IMG/VR virus record: IMGVR_UViG_3300009008_000030
Length of the DNA stretch: 64,000 nucleotides
DNA from: an uncultured virus (IMG/VR IMGVR_UViG_3300009008_000030)
Lineage: Duplodnaviria; Heunggongvirae; Uroviricota; Caudoviricetes
Strand: one strand, 5' to 3'
In this document: positions 1 to 41,906 of the stretch, piece after piece
How the letters are laid out: every line of letters starts with the position of its first letter
How positions within the stretch are numbered: position 1 is the first letter of the stretch
Made by a program: the position numbers and the translations under genes
Notes under the pieces: model-generated
What the model was told of the DNA's origin: nothing
The model's database searches: none
What the model saw: the letters and a program-made list of their open reading frames with translations, nothing else

Positions 1-721
1 CATGAAGGGGGTTATAGCTTCCCACCACTATGTAAGGTTCGCTGGGATCGAAGCGCGGTGACACCTCATATTCCGTAAGAACGGGTAGATCTTGGGGATT
101 CCAGTCTACGGTCCTCCCCGGAGCGCGACGGCCACGACCACGCCGACCTGATGATGAGATCATGTAGGCAGCGAAGTCCATCCCCGTCTTGGTAAGGTCT
201 TTCTCCGTCCAGAAGCTCCCGCTAGGCATCCGTAGGACACGACCGAATCGCCCCTCATGGTCGATCTTAGCTCCCTGCTTGACGAAGCCTAAGATCGCTT
301 CTCGACGGCTCGTGTACTCCCCACCGAAGCCCTGGACCTTGTTGAGTGCGGCGATAGCTCTTGCTCTCGATCTCGGAGAGAGTTGGTCAGCGAAGCCGTA
401 GGTTTCTTCATAGGCGGCCTTCTCCGCAGACGCCTTAGCTGCGACCGAGGCCGACTTCTCTTTCATGCGCTGGTGAGAGCCTAGAGAGCGGGTATCGAAG
501 TCGATCTCCGACTCTAACTCAGCGGGTTGGAGCAGGATATGTCCAGTGCGCCCAGGCACCTCGATCAACAGCATCCCCGAGGGGTGCGTACCGACCACGG
601 TCTTGACCCCCTCTGGACTATCCCAGGAGCGCCCTACATCGGCACGACGGCCACGACCACGACGGGCTGCCGCGTAGCCTAGAGCGGCCCCTCCAAGGGC
701 ATAGGGGAAGTAGCCTGCCAC
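1..721 (-). CDS. RGRRA-linker modular protein (3' partial; absent from the ORF track)
   Basis: Manual translation from GTG at 721 gives MAGYFPYALGGAALGYAAARRGRGRRADVG..., with a second GRRGRGRRA at about 122-148. The frame stays open to the window edge. Confidence 0.8.
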   Translation of the reverse strand, partial: MAGYFPYALGGAALGYAAARRGRGRRADVGRSWDSPEGVKTVVGTHPSGMLLIEVPGRTGHILLQPAELESEIDFDTRSLGSHQRMKEKSASVAAKASAEKAAYEETYGFADQLSPRSRARAIAALNKVQGFGGEYTSRREAILGFVKQGAKIDHEGRFGRVLRMPSGSFWTEKDLTKTGMDFAAYMISSSGRRGRGRRAPGRTVDWNPQDLPVLTEYEVSPRFDPSEPYIVVGSYNPLH

Positions 722-725
722 TGAG

Positions 726-2336
726 TTACCATCCCCAGGCTCGGCGGCCTCGATTCTTGAGGCCCCATTCGCCTAGAACGCCATATTCGTCGGCTAGGGC
801 TTGCCAGGAGCCTGCGGATCGAAGTTCAGAGTCGAACTCTTTGGCGTACTCCTGGGCGACGTGCATCCGCGTTTCCTTGGGGAACACTTTGTGCCAGGGC
901 ACCCCAGGAGAACCGAACGCCTTGTTGTACTTCTTGGCTCCTGCATCCACTAGGTACATCCAGAGCTTCGGAGCGAGGGCGGGGTTGTACTTGCCGCTCT
1001 TGACCTTGCGAAGCTGGTTTTTGCGGATCTCAGTCTTCTGGCGATAAAGCTGGTAGTCGTTGTCGATGTAAAGCTCAAGCTCGCGGGCTGCGTGTTCATC
1101 CACAGCGCGGCGGCCTCGGGAAGATCGACCTCCCACTGCTGTGTAGTCTCCCCGCTCCAGCAGGAAGCTAGCCGCATGTTCTAGATCTGATTTCTTAGCG
1201 GGATTGCCTTTGTGATCAGTGAGTAGGAACACCAGTCCCTTCTCTTTCCACCCCGGCTGATTCGTTGCAGGGATCGCAAAATAGGTCTTGTTCTTGTTGA
1301 GCTTAATGCCCGTCCCTAACAAGGAGTAGTCCATGTTGGGGCTTACGCTGATCAAGTTATCCTCCCACGATGCGCGGCGGCCTCGGGCAGAGCGGCCTTT
1401 GCGAGCTTCAATGGCCTCTTGGAAGGTCGCAAAGAATCCGTGGTCTACTGGATCTTGGCCCACCCGGTTGGTCATTCGTCGCCAGTCGGAGTTAAGCCAG
1501 TAGTAGGTTACGGTGTCAAAGCTGCCGTCTGGATTGTCTTTGACAAAGGTGCCCTCCATCTGCTTACGCCAGCCTGCCGGGGGCTTGGGGCCAGGGTAGG
1601 CATAGCCTATCTTGACTCCAGCGCGGCGGCCTCGGCCACGAGCGCCTTCTCCTAGCGAATGTACGCCGAACTCAGCGCCACTAAGGTGCTTCACCAACTT
1701 CTTTGCGTCGGCAAGGCTAGACGACCATTCCTCAGCGCCACGATTCGGACCTGAGACCATCACCACATCAAAATGCTTCTCGCCCCGACTCTTGGAGATG
1801 TCAGCAACCTCTCGATCCCCGTAGGTAACGGTCCACATCTGTGTACCAAACTGGTTGACCCCTGCGCTGTGGGTGTACCACCTCTTCCCGGCGCGGCGGC
1901 CTCGGGAGCGTCGGCCCTTGTTGGCGGCTCCGGTCTTGGTGTGGCAGGTGCGTTTCTGGCCTCGACCAGAGCAGGTCACATCTTGGAATGGGCCTAGACC
2001 CCACTTCTCTGTTTTCTTGTAGATCAGCTTGAGGTCTGCCAGCGTAAGGTTGCCGTCCTTCCACGCCTTGGTGGCGAACTGCCTAGCGTTCACTGCCTGC
2101 TTCTTGCCGCAGTTCATGGGGTAGCCCCCGCTGAACGCTTTGCTCTTGCCGGAGCGAGTTGGATCTTCGTCCTTGTGCTTGCGCCTGTAGAGAGCGGATG
2201 CCTTCGACCAGGGAAGGGCAAAGTTGCTCCCGCGCATGGTGCGGCGTTGCTTGGCGGTGGGGTTGGTCTTGCACTTAGCCATGATCTCTATCTCTTTCCT
2301 GGCCACGGAACGTCGCCGTCTTTGTATAGCTGCCAC
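726..2336 (-). CDS. RGRRA-linker polyprotein with about 5 modules; likely start MAKCK at 2282
   Basis: RGRRA motifs at about 1890, 1620, 1372, 1105 and 740 separate distinct domains. The N-terminal module is basic and contains Cys. Confidence 0.85.
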   Translation of the reverse strand: MAAIQRRRRSVARKEIEIMAKCKTNPTAKQRRTMRGSNFALPWSKASALYRRKHKDEDPTRSGKSKAFSGGYPMNCGKKQAVNARQFATKAWKDGNLTLADLKLIYKKTEKWGLGPFQDVTCSGRGQKRTCHTKTGAANKGRRSRGRRAGKRWYTHSAGVNQFGTQMWTVTYGDREVADISKSRGEKHFDVVMVSGPNRGAEEWSSSLADAKKLVKHLSGAEFGVHSLGEGARGRGRRAGVKIGYAYPGPKPPAGWRKQMEGTFVKDNPDGSFDTVTYYWLNSDWRRMTNRVGQDPVDHGFFATFQEAIEARKGRSARGRRASWEDNLISVSPNMDYSLLGTGIKLNKNKTYFAIPATNQPGWKEKGLVFLLTDHKGNPAKKSDLEHAASFLLERGDYTAVGGRSSRGRRAVDEHAARELELYIDNDYQLYRQKTEIRKNQLRKVKSGKYNPALAPKLWMYLVDAGAKKYNKAFGSPGVPWHKVFPKETRMHVAQEYAKEFDSELRSAGSWQALADEYGVLGEWGLKNRGRRAWGW

Positions 2337-2665
2337 TCATAAGCTGCACTCTCAAAATCAGGCCAGGGTACTTCCTTGAAGTAGTCGCTGACAAACTTCT
2401 GGTAGTCACTCAGGCCCTTCATTCGCTTCGTGCGTGAGAAGGTGACTGTCTTTTGTCGGGGGGTACCTTTGTGGAAGGTGACACTACGGGGCTTGGGGAG
2501 CAACTGAGCTTGTTGTTCGCGCACCCATTTCGCCCCTTCGCTCTCGCCCGTAAAGGGGAGGTAGGGCTGCTGTGCGGCAGATCCACGTCCCTCCGCACCC
2601 TGCTGAGCCGCAACATAGCCCACCCCGGCTCCCACCAATCCCCATGCCATGTAGTTCTGAGCCAC
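2288..2665 (-). CDS. Small protein with hydrophobic Gly/Ala-rich N-terminal leader
   Basis: Starts MAQNYMAWGLVGAGVGYVAA; AGGAG RBS upstream. Confidence 0.7.
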   Translation of the reverse strand: MAQNYMAWGLVGAGVGYVAAQQGAEGRGSAAQQPYLPFTGESEGAKWVREQQAQLLPKPRSVTFHKGTPRQKTVTFSRTKRMKGLSDYQKFVSDYFKEVPWPDFESAAYEWQLYKDGDVPWPGKR

Positions 2666-2673
2666 GATCTCTC

Positions 2674-4029
2674 CTAGTCGCAGACGCAGTTGCGACGGCC
2701 TCGGGCGGCCTGTCCGGTGGTTGCATCAATGTACTTTTGCAGGCCGCCTTGAAAGGCGTAGCGGAAGTCGCTCCAGAACTCCTTGGCTACCGCGTTGGGA
2801 ACAGGACCGTTCTTGAAATACCGCTTCTTGAACTGCGCGAAGGTGTACCGCTTGGAGTAGGGGTTGACCTCTCTCCCTGCACGGCGACCGCTAGCTCGCC
2901 TGCCTCGGGCACCAGCAGGGGGTAGCGCATACCTCAATATTTCCTCTACGCGGTAAAAGGCTGCACTTTGCGTATGAGAAGTTCCATACGCAATCCTCTT
3001 GCCATGCAAGATTACCCCCCAACTCCATCCCAGCTTCCCAAACTTCTTTACAACCGCCCGCACCATGAACTTGCCGTAGGGGGCCTCCAGAACGTAGTGA
3101 CCGGGCTTGATCTCCGTGTACGCCTCACCCAACGCCTGAGACACCGGAGGGTAGGCGGCTCGCCTGCCTCGGGCGGCCTTCTTACGCCCCAGCCCGTAGT
3201 GTCCTGCCTTGGTCATGCGGTTGAGGTATGGCCCCTTGTGAAAGGACATGCGAGGGTGGCGCTTCTTCCAGAGGGCTTCGATGTGGTCCTGCGCTGCGTG
3301 GTATCGCCGCAGGTAGGAACGAAGATCCTCCTTCACCTTGCGGGGGAAGTGGTCGCGCACGACGCCTGAGATTGCAGAACCGTGAGATCCATGCTCCTTG
3401 AGAGCAGCAGCAACAGCGCGATTATACTTGCCCGCCCAGGTGTTTGCCTTACGGATCGCGCTGTCAAACTCTTTCTCAGACACATGCTGGCTTCGGACGT
3501 TACGCCTGCCTCGGGCGCTGTGGCCCGTCTTAGTGAGGCCCCTCAACTCAGCCTGAGCATCTTTTTTGAGGGTGTGCCACTCTCCCACATAGTCGTTGTT
3601 TACCCCTGTAACTCGGTACAAAGGGCGGCCCTTGTAGTGGTCATAGCCCTCAAAGATCTTGTACTTGAAAGAAGCGCGTCGTCTTGCGTCTGCGAGCGCA
3701 CCTCGTTCCTCGTCCTTGTCAGGATCATATCGAGCGCGACGGCCTCGGGCGCGGTGGCCTTCTTCCTGGGCCATGACCTTGGCGGTATTGTAGGCGTCCT
3801 CTCGGTCGTCGGTGTGATACCACTCCTCGATCTCGCGGCTACCCTGCGGCTTGACGATGTATTCTTCCCACTCTCGGTCAAAATAGACCTTCATCGGCCC
3901 GATGGTTTTCTTGAGTACCAGGGTGCCCCGGCGACCTTTGCCGCCGTGTAGAACATGCTCCACCGCTGCCTTTCCGGCTCCTGCGCCGAACGAGCTAATC
4001 GCTGCCTGTCCTAGTGACTTCCAGATCAT
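2674..4029 (-). CDS. RGRRA-linker polyprotein with about 5 modules
   Basis: Leader MIWKSLGQAAISSFGAGAG, then KGRRG, ARGRRA, ARGRRN, ARGRRA, ARGRRASGRRA and ARGRRN. Confidence 0.85.
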   Translation of the reverse strand: MIWKSLGQAAISSFGAGAGKAAVEHVLHGGKGRRGTLVLKKTIGPMKVYFDREWEEYIVKPQGSREIEEWYHTDDREDAYNTAKVMAQEEGHRARGRRARYDPDKDEERGALADARRRASFKYKIFEGYDHYKGRPLYRVTGVNNDYVGEWHTLKKDAQAELRGLTKTGHSARGRRNVRSQHVSEKEFDSAIRKANTWAGKYNRAVAAALKEHGSHGSAISGVVRDHFPRKVKEDLRSYLRRYHAAQDHIEALWKKRHPRMSFHKGPYLNRMTKAGHYGLGRKKAARGRRAAYPPVSQALGEAYTEIKPGHYVLEAPYGKFMVRAVVKKFGKLGWSWGVILHGKRIAYGTSHTQSAAFYRVEEILRYALPPAGARGRRASGRRAGREVNPYSKRYTFAQFKKRYFKNGPVPNAVAKEFWSDFRYAFQGGLQKYIDATTGQAARGRRNCVCD

Positions 4030-6573
4030 CTACCACCTCCAGCCCTGACGCGGCGGGATGCCGGGTCCGTAGGGGCCAGGACCGCTAGGATACCTGCGGC
4101 GAGCTACTGATCTACGCCCCCAGGCACTTTGTCCCTCGGGCTGGTAGATGTTTCCCCAGGTTTCTCGGCCTAGCTGCCGCTTGTACTTGTACAAGATCCC
4201 ATAAGCAACCTGCTGAGCCACAGGGTCCGACAACCCTACCATCGCTAGCAGGTTGCCTGTGTACGCATCGGGCTTATTGAAGCCGCACTGATCTTTTGTC
4301 AGCGCCCAATCGCAGACGCTAGAAAGCTGCTTGAGGGCGTCGTCCATCACCACGGTCTGCTCATGGGTGAGAGAGACAGACTCAAAGCCCTTGCCCTCCA
4401 TCTGCCGCAACTTGGCCCCCAGCTTGCGCCTCGCCTTGCCTGCTCGGGCATCCTTGATCGCCTGCTGGATATTCCCCCAGGTGGCCTTGGCCTCCGTAGA
4501 TGCGCCTCGCGGCGGGGGCGGGGGCGGCGTGTACTCCATGCGCTGCTCAATGGCGGCATGGACGACTTGTGTCTTGTTGTGCAAGATGCGGTTGATGTGC
4601 TGGTCAAGGGGGTGAGGGCTGACCATGATGCGGTACAGGGGAGAGCTTTTCTGGCCGATGCGGTGGAGTCGATCTTGCGTCTGTCGGTTGTCTCCCGGCT
4701 TCCACGCTTGGTCTACGAAGATCATGGTATCTGAGGCGGTCAAGGTGATCCCCAATCCCCCTGCATCAATAGAGATTGCGATCCCCTTGAGGTTCCCGGC
4801 TTGAAACTCGTCCTTCAACCTTTGTTTTTCAGGTCCAGATGTCCCTCCCATAATGGCCGCCCAGCCAGGGCGCTCGGCCAAGGCCAGCAAAGGCGCTCGA
4901 TGGGCCGAGGCCACCACCACAGGCTTGCCTGCTTCTTCGTATTCTTCCACAAGCTCCAGCACTGCCGGGACACGCGACTCCGCGAGCATGCGGCGCACCG
5001 TAGACATGGACTCAAAGGGAGGTAGTTCGCCACTCTCAATATCGTCAGCCAACATGGCGTAGAGTCGATCAAGCTCGCTCTCGATCTTGTTCCAGTCTTT
5101 CGGCTCTGGCACCACCACTACGGTCTCAAACCGCTTTTCTGGTAGCTCGGGTAAGACCTGCTCTTTGGTGCGCCGTAGCATGACACGTCGCAAGATCTCA
5201 GCTACCTCCGGCTTCGGGTAGCCCCACTCGATGCCGTAGCGCCCATCGCGAGCGTTAAAGAGCTTCTTGAAGTTGGTAAAGCCGTGTTTTCCCCAGCCAA
5301 AGGCTTCCTGGGCGCAGCGGCCTGCCGACATGATGCCCCACAGGTCGGGGGGTTTGTTGTCGAGAGGGGTGCCTGTCAGCAGCCAGATGGTCGCTGCGAA
5401 GTCAGCTAGGGTGCGGAAGGATTGAGTGCGCTGGGCTTTGGGGTTCTTGATCTTGTGAGCCTCGTCGGCAATCAGGAAGATCGGCAGGCGCTTGGGGTAG
5501 CCTCTCTCATTCTTTCCCAGGCGAGCTTGCCAGGAGTGCATTTCAGCCAAGATCTGCTCTCCAGCTTCCCGCTTCGCTCCCCGCCCCGCAGGCTCCGGTT
5601 GCCAGTTGGTTCTCTTGTTCTTCTGGATGCCCGGCAAGCGGTCATAGTTGAGGACGATGATCTCCCCTGGCCTCGGTAGTCGCGACAGGTACTCTTTGGG
5701 CTTGCTGATAACGGTGACCGCGAGATCAGGCCGCCACCGCTGTGCCTCAATCGCCCAATTCAGTTTCACTACGTCAGGCACCACCACAATGGCCTGGGCC
5801 TTGCCAGGGAGCGCCAGCAAGGTCTGCACGGTCTTGCCCGTACCCATGTCGTCGGCCAAGAGGGCACAGGCCCCGCGCTCGTCGCTGAGGTGACTGCGCC
5901 TCGCCAGGAACTCGACCCCTTGTAGCTGGTAGGGGTAGGGACGAAAGCCCTCTTTGGTCTTGACCCTCTTTGCAGAGCGCAGGACGCCCTCTAACGCCTT
6001 TGCGCCCCCTGTGCTAACGCCAGTCATGCCCTCGGCCCCCGCAACGCCTCCTAGAAGGGCTGGGTCTATCTGAGCGCCGATTTTGCGTGCCACTTCAATG
6101 GTGCGCGGCAGGTCACGGGGCTGTACAGACAAGATCCATTTTCTGCGTTGTCCATCCCAGCGCCGCCCTGGTGCGGTTTTGATGATGGGGATAGCGTTGG
6201 GATCATATGGGAAGTCGAGTGTTCCATCGGCATGTAGGTACTTGGCCTCGGCCTCGGCCTCTTTTGGGGCTCCCCCTTTGCGGTAGTTGCCGGGGGCGCG
6301 GGGGTCGTTCTCAACGTAGTCGAGCAGGAAGTCAGGCCAGTCAGAGGGATCTTTATCGTAGACCTGCCAGCGGGAAAAACCTTCTCGCTTGACCGACACC
6401 CCCTGGTTGGGGCCAATGCGCTTCTTGGTGATGGGGTCAGTACCCCCGAACTTGTTGCCGTAGAAAACCCGCTCTACATCACCACGAGCGCGACGGCCTC
6501 TCCAGGGCGCAGCCCTACCTCCCCACTGAGGCCGTGGGCGCGGGGGAGCTTGCAACCACCGGGGGAGGCGCAC
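4030..6573 (-). CDS. SNF2/SWI2-family helicase-like ATPase inside the RGRRA array
   Basis: Q-motif PYQLQGV, motif I LADDMGTGKT, motif II DEAH, LTGTP, MLRRTK, GLGITLT and QTQDRLHRIGQ. RGRRA near the N-terminus and WGRRS near the C-terminus. Confidence 0.93.
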   Translation of the reverse strand: MRLPRWLQAPPRPRPQWGGRAAPWRGRRARGDVERVFYGNKFGGTDPITKKRIGPNQGVSVKREGFSRWQVYDKDPSDWPDFLLDYVENDPRAPGNYRKGGAPKEAEAEAKYLHADGTLDFPYDPNAIPIIKTAPGRRWDGQRRKWILSVQPRDLPRTIEVARKIGAQIDPALLGGVAGAEGMTGVSTGGAKALEGVLRSAKRVKTKEGFRPYPYQLQGVEFLARRSHLSDERGACALLADDMGTGKTVQTLLALPGKAQAIVVVPDVVKLNWAIEAQRWRPDLAVTVISKPKEYLSRLPRPGEIIVLNYDRLPGIQKNKRTNWQPEPAGRGAKREAGEQILAEMHSWQARLGKNERGYPKRLPIFLIADEAHKIKNPKAQRTQSFRTLADFAATIWLLTGTPLDNKPPDLWGIMSAGRCAQEAFGWGKHGFTNFKKLFNARDGRYGIEWGYPKPEVAEILRRVMLRRTKEQVLPELPEKRFETVVVVPEPKDWNKIESELDRLYAMLADDIESGELPPFESMSTVRRMLAESRVPAVLELVEEYEEAGKPVVVASAHRAPLLALAERPGWAAIMGGTSGPEKQRLKDEFQAGNLKGIAISIDAGGLGITLTASDTMIFVDQAWKPGDNRQTQDRLHRIGQKSSPLYRIMVSPHPLDQHINRILHNKTQVVHAAIEQRMEYTPPPPPPRGASTEAKATWGNIQQAIKDARAGKARRKLGAKLRQMEGKGFESVSLTHEQTVVMDDALKQLSSVCDWALTKDQCGFNKPDAYTGNLLAMVGLSDPVAQQVAYGILYKYKRQLGRETWGNIYQPEGQSAWGRRSVARRRYPSGPGPYGPGIPPRQGWRW

Positions 6574-6582
6574 AGGCTCGAC

Positions 6583-6816
6583 CTAGCGGCGGCTGCGGCT
6601 GCGGCGGCCTCGATTGGAATGGCCTGCCATTGAGGTGCCGGGAGGACCACCCGCCTGTTCCCAGGCCATAGCTTCGTAGACGCCACCCAGGTGACGGCGG
6701 GCGCGAGAGCCCATGTGCTGCTTGCCATAACGCACCTTGAGACCCGACTTCTCGTAACCGTAGAAGGCGAGAGCGCCTAGACCCATGAAGGCGATGTTGT
6801 TAAGCCACTTTCCCAT
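6583..6816 (-). CDS. Small membrane-anchored protein ending in NRGRRSRSRR
   Basis: N-terminal hydrophobic segment IAFMGLGALAFYG; RBS upstream. Confidence 0.7.
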   Translation of the reverse strand: MGKWLNNIAFMGLGALAFYGYEKSGLKVRYGKQHMGSRARRHLGGVYEAMAWEQAGGPPGTSMAGHSNRGRRSRSRR

Positions 6817-6820
6817 TTTC

Positions 6821-7201
6821 TTATCTCCTTGGACGGACGACGGGAATGACCGCCAACGTCAGCATTAAGTAGTTCATAACGATCAGCCCTGCTCCAGCGA
6901 GAGCCAGATAGCCTACATTCTCTTGCATCCATTCAGTTACGCCTTGCTTGGCGCGGATCTTACATTCTTCTTGTAGCGTTTCCAGCTTGGTTTGTACCTC
7001 GGGGCTGTTGATTAGGTCTTGACCCGCTTGGGTGGCTACATCACCGAATCCCAGCCCTCCCAAGGCTTGCAGGAAGCCTTCCACGGGGCTTGCTCCATAG
7101 GAGTCTCCGTTGAGATCATCGTAGTCCCACGGAAGGTAGGGGTTGCCGTTGTAACCGTAACTGGAGCCGTGCATCTCGCGATAATGTGGGTACATCACCA
7201 C
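6821..7201 (-). CDS. Putative virion membrane protein with C-terminal TM
   Basis: C-terminal hydrophobic helix followed by RPRR; SYG motifs near the N-terminus. Confidence 0.65.
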   Translation of the reverse strand: MVMYPHYREMHGSSYGYNGNPYLPWDYDDLNGDSYGASPVEGFLQALGGLGFGDVATQAGQDLINSPEVQTKLETLQEECKIRAKQGVTEWMQENVGYLALAGAGLIVMNYLMLTLAVIPVVRPRR

Positions 7202-7749: not shown

Positions 7750-8733
7750 CTAGTAGCTGTAGGCGAAGTTGGCTGCACCCCCGCGACCGCGCATAGCGAG
7801 AAACGCGATCAGGCCGACGACGGCCACGCCGCCTAGACCGATTCCGACCCACGCTCCGGCTCCGAGACCGCCCGAACCGCTGCCCTGCTCGTCGTTGACG
7901 GTGTTGGCCGCGTTGGCGATGGATTGGTTCATTCGATCTTGAGCCATTTGCTCAGCCAGCCTGTTGTTGTTGAGAATGGCATCGGCAAGGTCAGACTTTG
8001 ACTGAGCTAGCTCGTTGGCGCTCGTTTGCAGTTTGGCGTTGGCCTCGGCGCTGAGTGCGCTGGAGTCACCTCCAGAGGCATTGACGGCTGCGTGAAGCTG
8101 ACCGATGCCCCCAAACAAAGCCCCCGCTCCTGCCAAGGCCGTTCCTAAAATGTTGGCGAAGGCGTTGGGGTCGAAGCTCTGCTTGTTGCCAGAGCCAGCA
8201 CCGCCCCCTTCTGTGTCGCTCGCCCCGCCGGAACTGGTGTCTCCGCTGGAACCGCCGTTGCTGAAATCGAAGCCTGTCCCGGTCCATGTAAAGCCGTACC
8301 GATCTCCAGAGAATCGAGCCCTTCGCGTTTGCGTAGCTCGGACAAGACACCCTCCTTTACGGAGACCTCGGAGAGAGGCTCTGAGAAAGGCATTACGCTT
8401 AGCTGGAGGAATCTCGTGGCGCAAGATGCCCCAACGCATCTGAAACTGAATGATGGAGCGAGCGCGGCGGCGTGTGCGCCCTGTGCCCCACTGAACGACC
8501 GCTCTAGCCAGTTCAGGGTTGTCGGGGTGGTTCCTCATCCCCGGCGTTGCATTGAGCGAGCGGGTGACCGCCTGGACGCAGGGAGAGAGGGGCTGGCGTA
8601 GCTGCCCTGCCTGGAGGCCAGCGGCTTGTCCGTAGGCTTTTCCGGCGGGGTGCGCGTTGGCCCATAGGGCATCTCGATAGTGTGGCTGCATGTTATTGCT
8701 CCGAGGCGTCAAGTAAAAGGGTCTCGGCCCCAC
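7750..8733 (-). CDS. Putative virion membrane protein (Gly/Ser linker, coiled coil, C-terminal TM)
   Basis: Ends GAWVGIGLGGVAVVGLIAFLAMRGRG; internal hydrophobic helix; YG motifs. Confidence 0.65.
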   Translation of the reverse strand: MGPRPFYLTPRSNNMQPHYRDALWANAHPAGKAYGQAAGLQAGQLRQPLSPCVQAVTRSLNATPGMRNHPDNPELARAVVQWGTGRTRRRARSIIQFQMRWGILRHEIPPAKRNAFLRASLRGLRKGGCLVRATQTRRARFSGDRYGFTWTGTGFDFSNGGSSGDTSSGGASDTEGGGAGSGNKQSFDPNAFANILGTALAGAGALFGGIGQLHAAVNASGGDSSALSAEANAKLQTSANELAQSKSDLADAILNNNRLAEQMAQDRMNQSIANAANTVNDEQGSGSGGLGAGAWVGIGLGGVAVVGLIAFLAMRGRGGAANFAYSY

Positions 8734-12730: not shown

Positions 12731-13486
12731 TTGACAAAGAAAGCAAACTCTGATCTCGCCATCGCCTACATTCGGGTCTCGACCGACGACCAACACCTGG
12801 GACCGGAGGCCCAGCGCCAGGACTGCGAAAAGTGGTGTATACGCCACGAGGTCAAGCTCCACTCTGTTTTTACGGACCAGGGCGTGTCTGGTGGAAAGGG
12901 TCTCGACTCCAGCGGGACCGCTCTCGACCTCACCAAGCGCCCTGCGCTGATGGAGGCGATCTCACAGATGCGGGAAGTGGGTGCTGGGATCTTACTGGTG
13001 GCCAAGCGGGACCGACTCGCCAGGGACGCGATGTTGGCCGCCATGCTTGAGCGGCTCTTGGCCAAGACCGGAGCGGTGGTGCGCTCGGCAGACGGCGTAG
13101 CTGGAGGCGACACCCCGGCAGATCGCTTCCAAGCTCAGATTCTCGATGCCGCCAGCGAGTACGAGCGGGCGCTCATCCGTGCCAGGACCGCCGCTGCGCT
13201 GGCCGTCAAGCGCCGCCGGGGGGAAAAGACAGGGGGAGACACACCCTTTGGCTTCCGCGCCGTTCCTGATGCCTCTGGTACGCTCCTGCTGGTCGAGGAC
13301 GCAGGGGAGCAGTGGGTCATGGCCTACATCGAGACTGCACGGCGGGCTGGCCTGTCCTACGCTAAGATCGCCAAGAGGCTCAACGCAGAAGGGATCTCAT
13401 GTCGCGGAAGCCGCTGGCATACGACGACGGTGGTTCGCCTGTACAAGCGGCAGGTGGCTAAGCGCCTAGCGCCCGCTCTCATCTGA
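12731..13486 (+). CDS. Serine recombinase (resolvase catalytic domain plus short recombinase domain)
   Basis: YIRVSTDDQ with catalytic Ser, DQGVSG, RPAL, KRDRLARD, SEYERALIRART, and C-terminal LSYAKIAKRLNAEG...RWHTTTV. Confidence 0.93.
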   Translation: MTKKANSDLAIAYIRVSTDDQHLGPEAQRQDCEKWCIRHEVKLHSVFTDQGVSGGKGLDSSGTALDLTKRPALMEAISQMREVGAGILLVAKRDRLARDAMLAAMLERLLAKTGAVVRSADGVAGGDTPADRFQAQILDAASEYERALIRARTAAALAVKRRRGEKTGGDTPFGFRAVPDASGTLLLVEDAGEQWVMAYIETARRAGLSYAKIAKRLNAEGISCRGSRWHTTTVVRLYKRQVAKRLAPALI

Positions 13487-14932: not shown

Positions 14933-16187
14933 GCTTCCCTCTCGTTTCCTTCGATAAGCATGCCCGCTTCCACGTTTTCCCGAAGGAAGTTTGCTAGGTC
15001 GCGTCTGGTGTCGTCGCAAGACATAGGCTTGCCCTGGAACTTCCCGCAATAAAGGGCGTCGATTACAGACAGCACTGCGTTTGCGGCCTGTTGGTTCATA
15101 AGGGCGTGTTGGTTTTCATTGAGTCGGTGGTGGCTCATGCTCACTCTCCATCGAGTAGCTGTTTGATGTTCACGTCAGGCAGCTTCACTTCGCTGCCGTC
15201 CTTCATGGTGACCACCGATCCGTACAGCATGGGGAGTGGTTGCTGACCCCGTTCGTGAGCCTTCACTCGGGCGAACCCCACGGTGGTGTCATAGCCACGA
15301 GGGATGAGCAGGATGGATGAGATCTCATGGGCCTCGATGCCGTACTCGGCCTTGACCGCAAGCTGCCTCTCTAACTGTTGCAAGAGGCGCTGCTGCTCAG
15401 CCCTTTTCTCTTTGATTCCGGCTATCAGGGTCAAGGCCGATTTTAGCATGGTCAGTTCCATCCAGGCGAGAGGTTCTCAGCGATCTCAGAGGACACCTCG
15501 GGATAGGCCGTGGCCGTGGCCATGACCTTGCACACCTCCACGTCGGTAGGTGAGATCTGCTCGTCCTCTACCAACTCATCAGCCGCGCTGCCAGCCACCA
15601 GGGACCAGAAGGGGCTCGGGGCGGTCAAGGCCAAGCACAGGATGCTCGTGAGGCGCTCGATGGGGGTGGGGGTCATGGGCTATCCTCCTGGCGCTGCTCT
15701 CGGCAGGCCGCTTTGGCCTGCCGTCGCAGGGCCTTCTCGATGATACGCTTGTGCTTCCTGGCCTTCTCGGCCCGCCGACCGCCATGACCTCGATGGAACT
15801 GTCCATCAATGTCCTTGCGGTCCTTGAACAGTTTAGCTTTGCCGACCATTGTCAATACTCCCTCTCAGGTTCTCTCTGTGGGGCGCTCAGCGCCGGGGGT
15901 GGAAGGGCGCGGCTCCTGGGGCCTGAGAGGGACGCTCACTCGGCCTCCCCTCCGTATACGTCCGACCCGCATGGCTGCGCTGCGGGGGGCAGCGGTCCAT
16001 ACTGCGCCTGGGAGTCCCAATAGCGGCGGTAGAGCCTTTGCGCCGCGTCTCTCTCTGCGGCGTTGTAGCCCTCCTGCCACGCCAGCGCCCGCCACGTTCG
16101 CGCCTTGTAGGGGTTGGTCATGGCTGCTCCGGTGCGGTAGGCGTCCCAGCCCTTTGCCTTGATTCCTTGCTCGGTCACTGCGCCCAT
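14929..16187 (-). CDS. Run of small early-type hypothetical genes (14929-15144, 15141-15461, 15452-15676, 15673-15855, 15936-16187)
   Basis: Co-oriented ORFs, mostly with overlapping stop/start codons. Confidence 0.6.
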
Positions 16188-16270
16188 TGTCTCAGTCTCC
16201 TAGTTGGTGCCCCAAGGGGCAGGGGGTGGACCCCCATCTGACGGCTCCCGTAGGAGCCGCCAGTCCGGTT
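16188..16270 (-). repeat. Structured intergenic element, copy 1 (three hairpins plus RBS)
   Basis: ACCGG-CTG[stem]CAG-GGGGGTCCACCCCC-TGCCC..GGGCA-CCAACTAGGAGAC on the minus strand. Confidence 0.85.
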
Positions 16271-16276
16271 GTGGAT

Positions 16277-16597
16277 CTAAAGTCTCTCCATCTTTCCGGT
16301 CTTCGGGTTGTGGTAGCGGATCTCTGTGCATCCCGCGTTCGGCATCCCGAAGTCTTCGAGTGGCTCGAACCCAGTGGCATCGTCGTCGCCTACAAAGATC
16401 CCCTCGTAACAAAGATCCCCGTCGTCGTCGTACATCGAGAACCGCTCACCGCTTTCGCTTGAACGGATCTCATCCAGACTCAGGCCCGTCAGGGTCGAGT
16501 TCCAGTCGCCCGGCTCAGGGTCGTTCCAGTAGCCCTTGCAGCCGACACAATCTTTCGTGATCAACCATGCGTATCCGGCCCGCTCGTGTACATTCAT
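16277..16597 (-). CDS. Hypothetical phage protein
   Basis: FSMYDDDGDLCYEG...FEPLEDFGMPNAGCTEIRY; flanked by two copies of the element. Confidence 0.75.
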   Translation of the reverse strand: MNVHERAGYAWLITKDCVGCKGYWNDPEPGDWNSTLTGLSLDEIRSSESGERFSMYDDDGDLCYEGIFVGDDDATGFEPLEDFGMPNAGCTEIRYHNPKTGKMERL

Positions 16598-16680
16598 TGT
16601 CTCAGTCTCCTAGTTGGTGGCCTATGGCCAGGGGGTGGACCCCCGTCTGACGGCCCCCGCAGGAGCCGCCAGCCCGGTCG
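16598..16680 (-). repeat. Structured intergenic element, copy 2
   Basis: Same layout as copy 1, with compensatory changes. Confidence 0.85.
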
Positions 16681-16685
16681 TTCAA

Positions 16686-17429
16686 TCACTTCTTGCTCTT
16701 GCCCTTGCCCTTGCCCTTCGGCGCAGTCTTGGGTGCCTTAGCGGCGGCCTCAGCGGCCTTAGCAGCGGCCTTGGCCTCACGGCGCTCCTTGGCCTCGGCC
16801 TTGCGGCAGTTGCGGCAGTGGCTCTGGTTGCGCTCGGTGACACGGATGGTCTGGTTCTTGTGGTTGACTTTCTTCATGTTCCGCAGACCGAAAATGGAGT
16901 CGATGCCGCCGTTGGGGTCCTCGGTACTGTCGCGGCCCTTGCCGGTGACGCCACAGCGGGGGCAGGAGTGAGGGTCAGCGATGAGCGACGGGTTGCGGAT
17001 CACCTTGTAGTCACTCGTGTCGATGGAGGCAGTGTCCACGGCCTCAGCCTTCGGCTCGTCGGCCTTGGGAGCGGCCTTCGCCTTGGGAGCGGCCTTCGCC
17101 TTGGGAGCGGCCTTCGCCTTGGGAGCGGCCTTCGCCTTGGGAGCGGCCTTGGCCTTGGGAGCGGCCTTCGCCTTGGGAGCGGCCTTGGGGGGCAGCACTT
17201 CGTCGGCAGCGTCGAGAGCGTCGATGGCGGCGTCGTCGGCCTTCATTTCGGCCTCGATGCGGTCGAGCAGCGAGAGGATGCCCTTGCGGCTCTTGGCGGC
17301 AGTCTCGGCAGCGCGGAACACAGCCAGTTGCTCATAGCTCTGGATGGTGTCGTTGCACACGCGCTTGGCGTCTTTGACGGGGGCGCTGGTCATGGTCTCG
17401 GCGGCGGCGTTGGTTTCGTTGACGTTCAT
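16686..17429 (-). CDS. Histone H1-like (PKAKAA)n protein with C-terminal zinc finger
   Basis: About seven tandem 18-bp units encode PKAKAA; CPRCG...IFGLRNM...QSHCRNCR; Lys-rich tail; AGGAG RBS. Confidence 0.8.
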   Translation of the reverse strand: MNVNETNAAAETMTSAPVKDAKRVCNDTIQSYEQLAVFRAAETAAKSRKGILSLLDRIEAEMKADDAAIDALDAADEVLPPKAAPKAKAAPKAKAAPKAKAAPKAKAAPKAKAAPKAKAAPKADEPKAEAVDTASIDTSDYKVIRNPSLIADPHSCPRCGVTGKGRDSTEDPNGGIDSIFGLRNMKKVNHKNQTIRVTERNQSHCRNCRKAEAKERREAKAAAKAAEAAAKAPKTAPKGKGKGKSKK

Positions 17430-17497
17430 GTTCTCATTCTCCTAGTGCCGGGGGGGTGGTGGCTCCGGCTAGCCAGTCGTTGATCGATTAGGGGTCC

Positions 17498-17525
17498 AGA
17501 ATAATCGTCTGGTGATCCCTGTCAA
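17498..17525 (-). promoter_or_regulatory. Sigma70-like promoter (TTGACA-16 nt-TATTCT)
   Basis: Perfect -35 box in an AT-rich gap upstream of the H1-like gene. Confidence 0.6.
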
Positions 17526-17742
17526 TACTTTTGTATACGATAGTTTTCCTACACCGAAATGCGTCCGTTGGGATTCACCCATGCCACGCTATTCCCCCCG
17601 CCCCTCCCCGCCCCCTGAGAGCGCCTGTGGCTCTCAGGGGGTGGCCCTCGTCACCGCCGTGAGACCGTTGCAGCGGCCTAGGTGAGACGAGGGCCTCGGG
17701 ACGGCCTGCCAGGGTAGCGTTCCACCCCAACCCTGGTCAGCG

Positions 17743-19556
17743 TCATTCATCATCATAGGCGTAGGCCACTTCGCGAATCAGATCCTCAGTCACGCCTGCC
17801 TTGTTGCCAGCAGCCTCCACGCGAGCGCGGGTGGTGTGTGAGAACACCAGCCGCAGCGTGGTGTGGGCCATGACCCGGCGGGCCATGTCCTTGATGCGTC
17901 GTTCCGTCCTGGCGTAGACGGGGAGCCCCACCCCGGTGGGCGCGTGGCTCAGCCGCCAGCCGCGCCCCCCGAGAACCCGGTGGACTGCGAACAGCCCAGA
18001 AGCCACCTGGGCCTCGACCACCTGGGGGTCTCCCTCAGTGGCTAGGGTGATCTCACTGGCGACGAAGCGGGTCATGGAGCCGTGGGTGCTGAGGCCAGGG
18101 CGCGAAGCTCTCGCCGCCTCACGTCCTTGAGGTGTTGTCGGTACTCAAAGCGCACCACCGCCTGCGTTGACCCGCTCTCGGTCCAGCCACAGGGACACAC
18201 GCCCGTAGAGCTTCGTTCCTCGCCATACTCACCAGACCATTCGACGGTCAGCTTGTGGCCCTTGATTCTAAGAGCCATGCTATCGGTCCTCCCGCTGGGC
18301 GGTGCTGCGGCTGACGAAGCCCATCGCCCCAAGCGCCTGGAGGGCAGCGGTCTCTCGGCAGACCATGCACAAGCCCTTCCAGGGGCCTCGTGTGCGCTGC
18401 GCCAGGGTGTAGCCCCAGGCGTCGAACGTCGTGCGGCACTTGCTGCACGGCATCGGATGCTCCATTTTCTCGCTAGGGTTGGTCATGGCCTATGCCCCTT
18501 CGTTGCAATCGCCTGTTCCGAGATCCTCGTAGCAGCAGGTAGTGCAGCACCCGCAGTCCTCACAGAGATCTCCGGTTTCGTTTTCGTCACCACAGTGGGA
18601 GCAGGGGTGGAAGTGCTGAGGCGGGCCGACCGTGATGGTGATGCGCGAGTAGCCCTCGAAGTTGGGCTCGTCGGTGATGGGCTCCAGCAGGGCCGTGACC
18701 CCGCCGCAGTAGCGGAGGCGCTCTTGGATCACTTCTTCCAGCCGCTTGCCGTAGCTGTCCTCATCCACTTCCAGCAAGTCGATGTTGTGGCTGTCGTTGT
18801 TGTCGTTGATGCCGATGTAGCGATAGATGGTCATGTCACTTGTTCTCCGTAGGGGGGGTTGAGGGGGCGTGCTGCCAGTCGCGAATCAGGTCAGCCAGGG
18901 GGCTGTACATGCCGATGTAGATCTCGTTGTTGCGTACTATCCGGCTGCCTGACGGCCAGCGGGGAGACCCGGCGGGCATGGACAGGCCGCCGTGGACCGC
19001 ATCCTCGCCGGGGTGCAGGTCGGGCCAGCGCAGATCTTCCAGCAGTCGGAGGATCTTCAAGGCCAGTTGTTCTTTCGATGCAGCCATGTCAGTCTCCCTG
19101 CGGGACGGCGGTGGTCACGACCGTCTCGTTGAGTCGGAGGGCCTCTACCGTTGTCTCCAGGCTCGCTATCACCCGCTCTACCGCCGCCATGTGCGCGGCT
19201 CGGTCACTGGCTTGCCAGCGGTCTAGGGGCTGCGAGATTTCGGGGGGAACTGCTGCCACAACAGAGTGGAGATCCGAAGTGGTTTGAAGTGAGGTGAGGG
19301 TAAAGGTCTGCTGGCCGAAGTCGCCGGGAGGGGCCTCGACCAGAGTGATGTTGAGTGCTGTTGTCCACTCGCCTGTTGTGGCGCTTGAGCGCACCCGCAT
19401 CACCAAGTCAGTCCCGGCCCCTGTGTTGCGAGCGAGGGTCTCGATGCGGTGGGAGGCTCCGTAGAGGTGAGGATCTCGGACGATGAGTTGCGCCAAGGTG
19501 ATCAGGAACCCGGCGAAGTTGGTGGTGTTGTGGATAGTGGCTTTCTCAAAGGGCAT
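17743..19556 (-). CDS. Run of small hypothetical genes (17743-18075, ~18072-18278, 18280-18486, 18490-18834, 18836-19087, 19089-19556)
   Basis: Closely packed co-oriented ORFs with RBSs; several are Cys-rich. Confidence 0.6.
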
Positions 19557-19560
19557 GGCG

Positions 19561-19635
19561 GTCTCCTAGTTGGTGCCCGTAGGGCAGGGGGTGGACCCCC
19601 GTCTGGTGACCCCTCTCGGGGCCACCAGCCCGGTC
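19561..19635 (-). repeat. Structured intergenic element, copy 3
   Basis: Same layout; GAGA tetraloop in the long stem. Confidence 0.85.
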
Positions 19636-20157
19636 TCAGTACATTCCTGGGAAGCACACGTCTTGGGTGGTGGTGATCGCGTCCTCCCAGGAGTTCAGGG
19701 CTTCTTCCAGTTCTCCCATTTGGTCGGGCAGGTCGGTCTCGGCCTCGTCGGCCTTTTCCTGGGCCGCTGCAAGGGCCTCTCGGCCCGCGTCGAGAGCCAC
19801 CTGGGCCATGACCTGTCCGTTGGACAGACGGCCCCACCGCGCCCATGCCTTGCGCCTGCTGTCATAGGTGTAGTCGAGTCGCTGGTTTTGGATCTCGTCG
19901 GGGAGATCTCCCACCAGATTGTTGAGGGTGTCCAATTCCTCTACCGCTTGATCTAGCTGCGCGGCGGCTTCCGAGACTTCTTCGTACTTCGGCAGGTGAT
20001 CCATGCCGTTGCACTCCAGATTCTCCTGCCACTCGGTTATCTCGTCGCGCAGTTCCTCGACAGCGCAGTAGGCGTCACAGACGAGCGCCTCCAGGGTGCT
20101 GCTGGCGGGAGCGTTGCGGGAGCCGCGAGGGCGGCTGGGCCGGGTGGGGTGGGTCAT
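19636..20157 (-). CDS. Acidic coiled-coil hypothetical protein
   Basis: VEELRDEITEWQENLE...; flanked by element copies. Confidence 0.7.
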   Translation of the reverse strand: MTHPTRPSRPRGSRNAPASSTLEALVCDAYCAVEELRDEITEWQENLECNGMDHLPKYEEVSEAAAQLDQAVEELDTLNNLVGDLPDEIQNQRLDYTYDSRRKAWARWGRLSNGQVMAQVALDAGREALAAAQEKADEAETDLPDQMGELEEALNSWEDAITTTQDVCFPGMY

Positions 20158-25906: not shown

Positions 25907-27763
25907 TTATGGGGTCCAAGGGATTAACTCACCGGAATCGTTGAAGATAGGCTCTGCATCCTTGTACCACCTCGCCATAAGGTGTGCATCCGCTTTGATG
26001 GGAATGTCGGGGATGAAGGACGCCATGCCCTCCACCATCACCTGTGAGAGCCGCTGTGCCGCGCTCTGAGCCATTTTCGGGCTGCTCTCGATGATTACCT
26101 CGTCATGCACGAAGGCAACGGGCCTAGACCCGTACAGGGGGCTGTCGGAGGGGAGGTAGCACTCCCTGGTCACTTTCCACAGCGCCAGCTTCGCCCCATC
26201 GGCTACCAGCCCTTGAAACAGGGTGTTGGCTCCGCTGGTGAAGGTGCAGCCCCCTCGGAGGCGGCCAGAGCGATGCTGTTCGATGCGAAAGCTCCCTCCT
26301 GCCAGCTTGCTCTTTTCTCCGATTAGCTTGAAGTAGCGGGTCATTTCGGGGTAGCGCGAGATCCAAGCTGCTTTCAGCGCCCTGGCCTCGTCCACCGAAA
26401 CGATGAGCCCATACCCCGCCTTGGCGAAGGCCGCGAAGGCATCCGGGCCTAGACCCGCTGGCAAGCCAAAGTTGAGCGCCTTGCTCAGTTGCCGGGTCTC
26501 TTTGAGTTGCTTGTCTCCCGCTTCGTAGCGGGTCACCGCATCTTCGTAGGAGATACCCAAGATCCCAGCAGCCGTCTCTAGGTGCAGTTCGCGACCAGCC
26601 TGGAGCGCAGTAGCCATTTCGCTTTCGCCAAAGAGATCGAGCAACACCTGGGCCAGCCCGCAAAGCTCCGCAACGTGGTAGTCGGCGCAGACAAAGAGCT
26701 TGCCAGGGCGAGGCACGAAGCACTCCCTGGCCCCGCCGCGCCGGGGCTGATTCTGGACGTTGGGCTTGCTGGCGCTGGTCCTGCCGGAGTCCACCAGCCC
26801 ATAGCGCGGGTTGAGGGGCTTCTCTGTGCCTTTTCGGAGCAGGGGAACGTAGGTGCTCAGGAGCTTCTGGTCGTTGCTGATGGACGCGAGAAGCTGGAGA
26901 TCTGAATCCCCCGATGCCTCCAGGGTCTCGACCGATGTGCTGACAGATCCCTTGGGCGTAAGCGGAGTAGCGTCACCCAGCGCGGCCTCGACCAGCCGTC
27001 TGACTTCCTTCATGTCCTTAGTCCGGTTGGGACGATACAGGCCCTTGCGCTGCAAGATCACCATCGCCTCGTCTACAGACAGGCTGAGGTCTTGCTCCAG
27101 GGCTTCGACCGCTTCGGGGTCCGTTCGCATCCCCCAGGCACCCAACAGGTGCAGGGGCCATGCGTAGGCGCACTGGCGCTCTAGGTCGGGCATTTCATCG
27201 AAGCCGTGGAACCTCTGCTCGACGTAGCGCCGCTGCGCGGCCCATACGCGCCATGTGATGCGTGCATCCTCGGCGGCGTAGCGGTGGGCCTCGATGGGGT
27301 ACTTGGAGATCGGCACTCCCTCAAGCTCACGGTATCGGAGACGCCACACATCGTCTCCGTTCTTGCCTTCGACCTTCTCTCCCAGGAACTTCTCAGAGAG
27401 TGCGGCCAGGGAGTGTTTGGGGGGGCGACCCTGGTCGGGATCGAACTTGGTAGTGCCTTGACCAATGTGGATGAGGCGGCTGTGAATCATGGTGTCTCGG
27501 ATGCGCCCGGCATCGTAGGCGTCCCACACCAGCTTGGCATCGAGGCCCGCTTGAACGAGGACTGCGAGATCGTAGGAGATGTTGTGTCCCACGATCACTA
27601 GCTCGGGGCCTGCTTTCAGGAGCCGCTGCGCGTAGGAGAGGGCCTCGTCGCGGCCTAGCAAGACCGGCTCGCTGCCGTAAGAGGCCGAGAGGCACACCAG
27701 CCGGGGCGCGAGCCGCCCAGGAGCGATGAGCCATGTCTCGGTGTCTATTGCGACGTATTCCAT
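25907..27763 (-). CDS. Family A DNA polymerase with 3'-5' exonuclease
   Basis: ExoI DTET, GHNISYDL, YAAEDA, SGRTS..PNVQNQPR, motif A ADYHVAEL, motif B RQLSKALNFG, motif C FVHDE. Confidence 0.95.
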   Translation of the reverse strand: MEYVAIDTETWLIAPGRLAPRLVCLSASYGSEPVLLGRDEALSYAQRLLKAGPELVIVGHNISYDLAVLVQAGLDAKLVWDAYDAGRIRDTMIHSRLIHIGQGTTKFDPDQGRPPKHSLAALSEKFLGEKVEGKNGDDVWRLRYRELEGVPISKYPIEAHRYAAEDARITWRVWAAQRRYVEQRFHGFDEMPDLERQCAYAWPLHLLGAWGMRTDPEAVEALEQDLSLSVDEAMVILQRKGLYRPNRTKDMKEVRRLVEAALGDATPLTPKGSVSTSVETLEASGDSDLQLLASISNDQKLLSTYVPLLRKGTEKPLNPRYGLVDSGRTSASKPNVQNQPRRGGARECFVPRPGKLFVCADYHVAELCGLAQVLLDLFGESEMATALQAGRELHLETAAGILGISYEDAVTRYEAGDKQLKETRQLSKALNFGLPAGLGPDAFAAFAKAGYGLIVSVDEARALKAAWISRYPEMTRYFKLIGEKSKLAGGSFRIEQHRSGRLRGGCTFTSGANTLFQGLVADGAKLALWKVTRECYLPSDSPLYGSRPVAFVHDEVIIESSPKMAQSAAQRLSQVMVEGMASFIPDIPIKADAHLMARWYKDAEPIFNDSGELIPWTP

Positions 27764-32669: not shown

Positions 32670-32903
32670 GTGCTGGAGGGGTCGATGTTGTTGCTGGAAT
32701 GGATGAAAGCCACGGAGACCTCCGTGGCTGAGTTGGCGCTCAGCCTGGGAGTCACAAAACAGGCGATCTACCTCTGGCTGAGCGGCGAGAACTGCCCGAA
32801 CGCCAAGAGCTTGCTCGCCCTCTACCGCCTGACCAAAGGCAAAGTCACCGTCGAGAGCTTCGTCACCGCCCTAGAGCAAGATGGGGAGGTAATCAATGGC
32901 TAG
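32670..32903 (+). CDS. Cro/CI-like HTH regulator
   Basis: SVAELALSLGVTKQAIYLWLSGENCP; divergent from the nuclease operon. Confidence 0.85.
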   Translation: MLEGSMLLLEWMKATETSVAELALSLGVTKQAIYLWLSGENCPNAKSLLALYRLTKGKVTVESFVTALEQDGEVING

Positions 32904-41675: not shown

Positions 41676-41856
41676 GTCGATCTCCTACTTTCTTGCGATT
41701 GGGGGTCAAGGCCCAGGTGACGGCGGCACGGAGACCCTCAGCGAGCGCAGCCCCAGCAAGGCCCGTTACCTCGGGGCGAACGCGCTCAAAGGCCGCAGAT
41801 GCAGCCTCCTTGGCCTTTTGGCCTTTTTCGTCCACCGAAATATCCTCGTCAGTCAT
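41668..41856 (-). CDS. Small hypothetical protein
   Basis: 62-aa ORF overlapping the next start. Confidence 0.5.
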   Translation of the reverse strand: MTDEDISVDEKGQKAKEAASAAFERVRPEVTGLAGAALAEGLRAAVTWALTPNRKKVGDRHE

Positions 41857-41906
41857 ACCCTATCCCTCGCGTCGTCTGTGCCCTGTGCGAAGCCTCTAGC
41901 GGCGTC

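Follow-up and report, generated by a model that had tools for sequence, protein, structure and literature searches.

In phage T4, the internal proteins IPI, IPII, and IPIII and the protein Alt carry a capsid-targeting sequence that is removed by the prohead protease gp21, which cuts at Leu/Ile-x-Glu sites. In African swine fever virus (ASFV), pp220 and pp62 are polyproteins cut by a virion cysteine protease, pS273R, and the adenovirus core precursors are cut in the same way by adenain; these enzymes are clan CE proteases that cut at Gly-Gly-X or similar sites, and the products are fixed structural proteins. In this work, we analyzed a stretch of 64,000 nucleotides (nt), hereafter the window, from the virus record IMGVR_UViG_3300009008_000030 (Caudoviricetes), which looks like an uncultured phage. 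Two gene arrays on its minus strand encode proteins that are chains of unrelated modules, each ending in a short arginine-rich linker, RGRR. On balance, we lean toward reading these genes as in-frame cassette polyproteins, in which the linker DNA is very probably a swap joint and the linker peptide would be a cut site.

Two published systems come closest: the T4 internal proteins, together with the processed ejection proteins of SPN3US/phiKZ-type phages (PMC3012670, PMC7411985, PMC10052503, PMC5694885), and the polyvalent proteins discussed below. As in T4, small proteins are preceded by a short N-terminal leader, the end of which is a conserved short site (here RGRGRR/A as a sequence feature, the slash marking the putative cut), this site recurs in neighboring proteins outside the arrays, and the proposed outcome is a set of small proteins carried in the virion. 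Unlike in T4, many unrelated modules are chained in each gene, most leaders are hydrophobic, the site is dibasic (RGRR/A) rather than of the Glu type, and the linker is conserved down to its DNA and lies where modules are swapped. Searches with Pfam, PHROGs, and NCBIfam found no gp21/U9/U35/S78-type or other prohead protease family in the window.

The polyvalent proteins of conjugative elements and phages (Iyer, Burroughs, Anand, de Souza, Aravind 2017, PMC5512222), as outlined in the sections of that article used here, place unrelated domains in one polypeptide with extensive mosaicism, and SNF2 ATPases are common among them. The same sections propose that the domains are released by embedded peptidases (zincin-like MPTase, assemblin-like, LonC, and DD-peptidase) and delivered with the DNA. 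The arrays resemble this system in having about 40 mutually unrelated modules that are mosaic across relatives. In contrast to it, they hold no embedded peptidase and none of the hallmark conflict domains (MPTase, methylase-SNF2 dyad, and ART): Pfam searches of the array open reading frames (ORFs) found an SNF2 ATPase in one ORF only and no methylase, MPTase, or other peptidase. The modules are also much smaller and lack a Pfam family, and a linker of the kind proposed here, at once cut site and swap joint, is absent from the main text of that article, in which the word "linker" occurs 0 times. The array system fails defining features of both the T4 internal proteins and the polyvalent proteins, having neither a Glu-type site nor a prohead serine protease, and neither an embedded peptidase nor the hallmark domains. 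A search of full-text literature found no description of RGRR-type or cassette-type phage polyproteins.

The original prediction, drawn from the sequence and its translations without database searches, had placed about 16 RGRR linkers in five ORFs of array 1 (positions 1 to 6816). All five ORFs are present on the minus strand, together with a sixth at 2288-2665. The number holds only when variants are admitted: the canonical in-frame motifs are 14 (11 RGRRA, two RGRRN, and one RGRRS), and three GRR variants (KGRRG at 3928-3939, NKGRRS, and ASGRRA) bring the total near 16. Array 1 was also expected to continue past the edge of the window, and ORF 2-721 indeed runs off its left end. Together with array 2 (Table 1), it extends over 6.8 + 9.3 kb, or about 25% of the window, in agreement with the view that one system occupies two loci and roughly a quarter of this DNA; both the linker peptide and its DNA word are common to the two. 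The 19-nt stretch at 1375-1393 that had been matched to array 2 recurs exactly at 41386, 43868, and 49816, and with one mismatch at 46890, 49420, and 50050.

The motif is far more frequent than composition would give. In 2000 amino-acid shuffles, the 14 RGRR of array 1 compare with a mean of 0.19 (maximum 3) and the 21 of array 2 with a mean of 0.38 (maximum 4), that is, 35 in-frame occurrences in the two arrays against about 0.6 expected. A six-frame scan of the window gave 54 RGRR, 35 of them in the coding frames of the arrays. At the DNA level, a 17-nt linker core (at most two mismatches) would be expected 0.08 times but was found 19 times, in each case on the minus strand, a count that exceeds all 100 DNA shuffles. 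Outside the arrays, a relaxed motif was found in two ORFs only, 52240-53295 and 53400-53840, which are neighbors of the gene at 55423-55812.

The linker is constrained at two levels, as peptide and as DNA. The peptide consensus is G(-4)-x-[S/R]-[A/G]-R-G-R-R-A(+1), with Gly at -4 in 21 of the 35 window linkers and 16 of the 28 linkers of relatives, and Ala at +1 in 26/35 and 23/28, respectively; the Gly at -4 is kept through varied codons. Codon choice was compared with the usage of the arrays themselves. The first Arg is CGA in 31/35 linkers (background 0.193, P 1.7e-18), the Gly is GGC in 31/35 (background 0.377, P 6e-10), Ala at -1 is GCC in 17/17 (background 0.356, P 2e-8), and Ser at -2 is TCT in 10/12 (background 0.203, P 5e-6). 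A local sub-variant with AGG is common to three linkers of one gene, which argues for copying between linkers rather than for one universally required word.

The array proteins were cut in silico after each RGRR, and pieces of at least 25 residues were counted. The 46 pieces comprise nine leaders or short pieces of 26-44 amino acids (aa), 33 modules of 68-132 aa, and four larger ones (163, 173, 374, and 819 aa), the largest being the SNF2-family ATPase of ORF 4030-6573 (PF00176 at 2.9e-25, PF00271 at 2.3e-9, and phrog_62 at 1.5e-79). The modules are not repeats of one another: apart from a leader that is present in five copies, all-against-all BLASTP across both arrays found one related non-leader pair (31% over 58 aa). 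They behave as independent proteins. Three of them match small stand-alone phage families (phrog_7884, phrog_5423, and phrog_13298), and the last module of ORF 726-2282 (positions 741-1106) has 2707 library matches at E 0.001 or better, many of which are free-standing proteins of 115-180 aa, while some lie inside proteins of up to 1682 aa. RGRR occurs in only 13 of 156 collected proteins, and the linker therefore belongs to a narrow lineage, not to the domain. The module is predicted with confidence by AlphaFold2 as a compact all-alpha fold, with a predicted local distance difference test (pLDDT) value of 93.6 from 34 sequences; across the linker, the value drops to 72 and then to 59. Searches with 17 relatives and domain homologs gave no Pfam family, and comparison of the module with PDB folds gave a best Foldseek E of 0.8 and, in a wide VIA comparison, a best Z of 5.9, which is within the noise for helical bundles.

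The array genes start in an ordinary way, with AGGAG-type sites and ATGA overlaps. The ORF called as 726-2336 probably begins at the ATG at 2282, 5 nt past the previous stop, although the GTG at 2336 is also possible. In eleven of the 15 array ORFs, an N-terminal stretch that is moderately hydrophobic and rich in Gly and Ala leads into the first linker (Kyte-Doolittle value of at least 1.0 over 15 aa within the first 45 residues), and four have no hydrophobic leader. The three hydrophobic leaders that the original prediction had quoted are present. A leader-plus-linker DNA repeat of approximately 81 nt opens five of the array ORFs, and one of its five copies is listed in Table 1; the other four start at 43354, 42761, 46616, and 47473. 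The copies are identical from the ATG up to the codon that follows RR, with an abrupt loss of identity at both limits. A second leader type, non-hydrophobic and with two cysteines, is seen in MSSCRNRRGQFTRC... (44667-45008, minus strand) and MDSCRTKAGKFTKC... (41151-41675, minus strand), the latter being followed by the degenerate linker AARGPAERR. At the other end, four genes stop a few residues after their last linker. In array 1 these tails are AWGW, NCVCD, and SRSRR; in array 2, RARRRR follows a GRR variant. The array-2 ORFs at 44514-45798 (minus strand) are linker-less.

Three consecutive array-1 ORFs (2674-6816, minus strand) share one reading frame, with a single TAG stop between one and the next. 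Such a TAG is often, in array 1, also the beginning of the TAGGAG ribosome site of the following gene; ORF 4030-6573 has a GTG start without a preceding TAGGAG-type site. Stop-codon read-through or recoding across these stops was considered and dropped, since every stop is located within an ordinary AGGAG-type start region and the genes of array 2 are spread over all three frames. Scans for promoters and terminators stayed at chance level, and no Rfam family or tRNA was found.

Module swapping is visible in related proteins and in natural variants of array 1. About 18 metagenome relatives are built in the same way, with shared modules that are ordered differently. BLASTP of 20 relatives and the 15 array ORFs gave 29 high-scoring segment pairs (HSPs); the start lies within 12 aa of a module border in 21 of them, and the end does so in 21. 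The original prediction had held that the two loci exchange sequence, and in five of the 20 relatives (P0002, P0005, P0008, P0158, and P0160) modules of both arrays are indeed joined in one protein, while natural variants break at linkers. One relative, P0157, keeps the leader, the first module, and the CVCD tail of ORF 2674-4029 with different internal modules, which suggests fixed gene ends with exchangeable contents.

To describe natural variants, contigs of four marine runs were placed on positions 1-7000 at a likeness of at least 80%, with joints coming from runs X4, X7, and X9. Joint 3160>3503 is a clean 342-nt loss of one module, and its 15 shared letters are the linker word CGCCCGAGGCAGGCG found at both linkers. 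At joints 1389>1889 and 2911>3742, 481 and 212 other letters lie between, respectively, and joints 1400>3733 and 3928>2882 were also seen. The remaining joints are a whole-gene indel (2282>2666, by which the entire ORF 2288-2665 is absent from contigs of X7 and X9) and two diverged segments. Nine of the 16 joint ends fall within 20 nt of a canonical linker, compared with 10.4% of the stretch (P 8e-6), as do 9/12 of the loose ends among those listed outside the conserved SNF2 motif (P 2e-7). In total, 9 of the 14 array-1 linkers are touched by module gain, loss, or replacement. From the placement of these breakpoints, the linker DNA is very probably the joint of the module swaps.

Like integron cassettes, the modules are unrelated units set between copies of a DNA site where gain and loss take place. 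Unlike integron cassettes, they are joined in frame inside one ORF, and the window encodes no tyrosine integrase, only a serine recombinase, and shows no attC-type hairpin beyond GC expectation. A direct repeat of 15-20 nt without a hairpin signal makes ordinary homology-driven exchange more likely. Other joints are seen in related proteins. Distant multi-module proteins with the 741-1106 domain (P0017, P0011, and P0024) have other short basic joints, of an RRKNP type (P0017 and P0011) and an RPRGA type, and the close relatives P0009, P0013, P0014, and P0002 have a longer joint, GQRSRKIWLGMQGLPxQGRRA. These patterns suggest that lineage-specific basic linker "dialects" are a wider habit.

Table 1. 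Coordinates of the arrays, their linkers, and other features of the window
Feature	Position	Strand	Description
Array-1 ORF	2-721	-	240 aa; C-terminus past left edge; hydrophobic leader, RGRGRRA, 173-aa module, RGRGRRA, further module
Array-1 ORF	726-2282	-	518 aa; five unrelated modules, each ending RGRRA; tail AWGW and stop
Small array-1 ORF	2288-2665	-	125 aa; hydrophobic leader; degenerate linker AEGRGSA
Array-1 ORF	2674-4029	-	451 aa; Gly/Ala-rich leader with KGRRG; five modules ending RGRR(A/N); tail NCVCD and stop
Array-1 ORF	4030-6573	-	847 aa; 28-aa N-terminal peptide ending at RGRR/A, then SNF2-family ATPase module
First array-1 ORF	6583-6816	-	77 aa; hydrophobic leader, one short module, RGRRS, tail RSRR and stop
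Array-1 linkers	125, 644, 741, 1107, 1374, 1623, 1893, 2692, 2896, 3160, 3502, 3736, 6490, 6601	-	
Representative linker DNA word	1372-1393	-	reads TCT GCC CGA GGC CGC CGC GC
Array 2	41151-50417	-	21 in-frame RGRR; eight linker-bearing ORFs
Array-2 linker-bearing ORFs	41151-41675, 41907-42773, 42758-43354, 43375-44517, 45795-46616, 46613-47500, 47473-48993, 48984-50417	-	
Leader-plus-linker repeat (~81 nt), one of five copies	44437-44517	-	encodes MSYAKLGMAAxGAAAAYGxSRG[R/Q]GRR
ORF outside arrays	52240-53295	-	351 aa; linker-like site YARGRKARY; C-terminal hydrophobic anchor
Very basic ORF outside arrays	53400-53840	-	146 aa; AANRGRRAG, codons CGA GGT CGC CGC GCA
Candidate processing protease	55423-55812	-	129 aa; transglutaminase-like (papain-type) fold; Cys72, His103, Asp118
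ORFs ending in helix, then Arg (seven)	50420-50782, 50754-51104, 51109-51996, 52003-52233, 52240-53295, 6821-7201, 7750-8733	-	
Serine recombinase	12731-13486		
Family-A DNA polymerase	25907-27763		
D5-type primase-helicase	32896-35163		
M15 endolysin	38092-38610		
GDSL-type lipase/esterase genes (two, adjacent)	38873-40299	-	lysis region

On the peptide side, we consider it somewhat probable that the chain is cut at RGRR/A. Cleavage is favored because a fixed small residue follows RR, because linkers sit directly after leaders and before short tails, because the module size is typical of free small proteins, and because the relaxed motif outside the arrays is confined to two neighboring ORFs, of which 53400-53840 again uses CGA. 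The only recognizable peptidase in the window besides the endolysin is the protein of 55423-55812, and no subtilisin-like or omptin protease is encoded in the window. The match of the 55423-55812 protein to PF01841 is borderline (23.1 bits for a cut-off of 23, E 9.1e-5), and the same family is precomputed in 18 of its 37 listed cluster representatives. Across 36 homologs, D71-C72-E73-D74, H103, and D118-P119-S120 are invariant; from the known order of motifs in the family, we take C72, H103, and D118 to be the catalytic triad. The AlphaFold2 model has a pLDDT of 92.8, and its top Foldseek matches in PDB are TgpA, LapG, the putative Cys protease 3isr, the Pei isopeptidases PeiP/PeiW, and transglutaminases. 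The protein has no PDB sequence match and no PHROG; in the Atlas it belongs to a family whose members are small viral proteins, and its BFVD matches are mostly unnamed. The records of a homolog (P0206) and of an RGRR polyprotein (P0005) both give a contig of 68,082 nt, a single weak co-occurrence. As in ASFV and adenoviruses, a double-stranded DNA virus combines a candidate papain-like Cys protease with proteins that carry repeated short sites; unlike in those viruses, the candidate is transglutaminase-like and the cassettes are swappable. That this protein is the linker protease is a doubtful assignment.

The lysis genes (37-41 kb) share the strand of array 2 and follow directly downstream of it, so the array products are probably made late. 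Array 2 itself is located downstream of the 50.4-59 kb block, which we had suspected to be a virion module. Within this block, the small Gly/Ala/Thr-rich ORFs 55839-56213, 56223-56606, and 56618-57019 adjoin one another and are unassigned, as is the 518-aa ORF 57085-58641, with a helical N-terminus, for which the Atlas gave nothing usable. Many proteins of the block end in a hydrophobic helix followed by Arg. In seven minus-strand ORFs (Table 1), a hydrophobic, Gly/Ala-rich helix of 20 residues is followed by Arg and the stop (e.g., ...LLLLVAIFRR and stop). These C-termini mirror the array leaders (helix, then RGRGRR) and could reflect a membrane-associated assembly step or a shared docking signal.

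Elsewhere, the window contains genes for a family-A DNA polymerase, a D5-type primase-helicase, a PD-(D/E)XK nuclease, a serine recombinase, and an M15 endolysin. The two GDSL-type genes beside the endolysin hint at a host with an outer lipid layer to breach. The region 16000-20000, which adjoins the serine recombinase gene, has a GC content of 0.63-0.64 compared with about 0.60 elsewhere and a strongly negative AT skew, and its ORFs have no family match. Searches of INPHARED (50,697 deposited phage records) by blastn and tblastn gave no nucleotide or protein match to the window, protein scans of IMG/VR found no close relative of it, and neither of the two JGI metagenome scans nor a GTDB scan with an array leader gave a match. 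The linker 17-mer has 95 single matches in IMG/VR and the 20-mer has 119 in GTDB genomes, all of them in high-GC DNA without arrays. The stretch 1-7000 is partly present in 20 public runs from 12 studies, mostly marine or seawater metagenomes and two from hydrothermal vents; no RNA is listed among these runs.

We propose the following mechanism. An array gene consists of a short, mostly hydrophobic leader and then one to five unrelated, self-sufficient modules, each ending in a linker. The 15-20 or so identical linker bases provide, as the comparisons show, a joint for in-frame gain, loss, and exchange within and between arrays and related phages, and a cut at RGRR/A would free the modules as separate small proteins and remove the leader, with the transglutaminase-like Cys-His-Asp protein of 55423-55812 as the candidate cutter. 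The freed products might then be loaded in the virion as cargo delivered with the DNA; this step is speculative, and judging from gene order we regard virion loading of module products as possible but rather uncertain. More tentative still is the full combination, in which one 15-20-nt word would be both the homology joint by which any small gene could enter, in frame, an expression slot (leader, cassettes, and tail) and the code for a dibasic protease site, a single leader would load a changing effector set, encoded here by a quarter of the sequence, into the virion, and the transglutaminase-like Cys enzyme would be a new kind of phage maturation protease.

Several observations weigh against this mechanism. 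Six of the 29 HSPs span a linker, and neighboring modules are therefore sometimes inherited together. The contigs that yielded the joints were assembled from short reads of mixed communities and placed at 80% likeness, and such contigs can mislead; conservation of the linker codons across genomes is visible indirectly, via contig pieces that end at linkers. Some linkers of relatives are degenerate and lack RR (SARGRS, SAKGGRD, and GHGGQRS), and would thus stay uncut if RR is required. For the candidate protease, Foldseek gave modest scores (best E 4.6e-4, TMq 0.51), cell-wall isopeptidases and cross-linking enzymes share the fold, and no tie between the protein and the arginine sites was seen. 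No capsid, portal, terminase, or head-protease family was found in the window by Pfam, PHROGs, NCBIfam, or PDB sequences; with no virion family in the 50.4-59 kb block, late expression and packaging are argued from gene order only.

The alternative that survives best is that the proteins are never cut and that RGRR is a flexible, positively charged tether, for example a spacer binding nucleic acid or membrane, with the multi-module proteins at work in their uncut form, like beads on a string. Linkers rich in Arg and Gly typically serve as disordered spacers, and the drop of model confidence over the linker, the relatives whose linkers lack RR, and the failure of profile searches of the window to find a protease of matching known specificity all fit such a tether. 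However, a spacer has no need for a fixed nine-residue consensus with Gly at -4 and Ala at +1. A linker between the leader and the first module would be pointless for a tether, as would one followed by only 4-5 residues at the end of four array genes, and the modules are free-standing proteins elsewhere. A tether in the form of an AT-hook DNA-binding motif, the core of which is R-G-R-P, was rejected: the fourth linker residue is Arg in 35/35. Taken together, we judge an uncut tether unlikely.

It is improbable that the hydrophobic leaders insert the proteins in a host or viral membrane and that a host protease of dibasic specificity, and not a phage enzyme, cuts at the dibasic sites. A dibasic site with Ala behind it would fit omptin- or kexin-like rules, and the hydrophobic N-terminal window of most array ORFs, the signal-peptide-like leaders of relatives (e.g., MKKAMLFAGAAALGAAAM), and the neighboring ORFs that end in a hydrophobic helix and Arg could all be accommodated. 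Yet the hydrophobic stretches span no more than about 15-18 aa and lead into three to four arginines, which under the positive-inside rule oppose export of what follows, and four array ORFs do without a hydrophobic leader altogether.

A constraint on the nucleic acid only, with the peptide as a by-product of a recombination joint or of a translational pause (rare CGA and an internal GAGG), appears slightly more improbable again. Codon choice is far from background at seven positions, breakpoints fall at the linker word, the word contains GAGG, and ATG follows four linkers, all of which would fit such a constraint. Against it, Gly at -4 is conserved despite its varied codons, relatives retain GRRA in longer or altered linkers, and the real ribosome-binding sites here read AGGAG. 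RNA folding around the linkers (-22.6 vs. -19.4 kcal/mol, at 66% vs. 59% GC) shows no excess beyond GC, and the linker has no Rfam match.

Finally, a compositional or assembly artifact of GC- and Arg-rich sequence, to which the scattered RGRR in all frames of high-GC contigs might point, is refuted by the amino-acid and DNA shuffles and can be set aside, as the motif is confined to one strand, to coding frames, and to two loci, the same architecture occurs in independent metagenome proteins and in runs from 12 studies, and the linkers are shorter than the 31-letter words of the assembler.

If the linkers of these cassette polyproteins are cut, this phage lineage would express dozens of accessory proteins in the style of RNA viruses, as polyproteins with built-in swapping of parts. 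A joint serving for swaps in the DNA and at the same time as a site in the peptide would be one short sequence selected at two levels. Such a system would explain the rapid turnover of small accessory genes in phages, and dibasic Arg would be a cut-site chemistry not described for phage maturation. The rule of a leader followed by modules between RGRRA sites would also provide a way of harvesting candidate host-takeover and anti-defense proteins from marine viromes.

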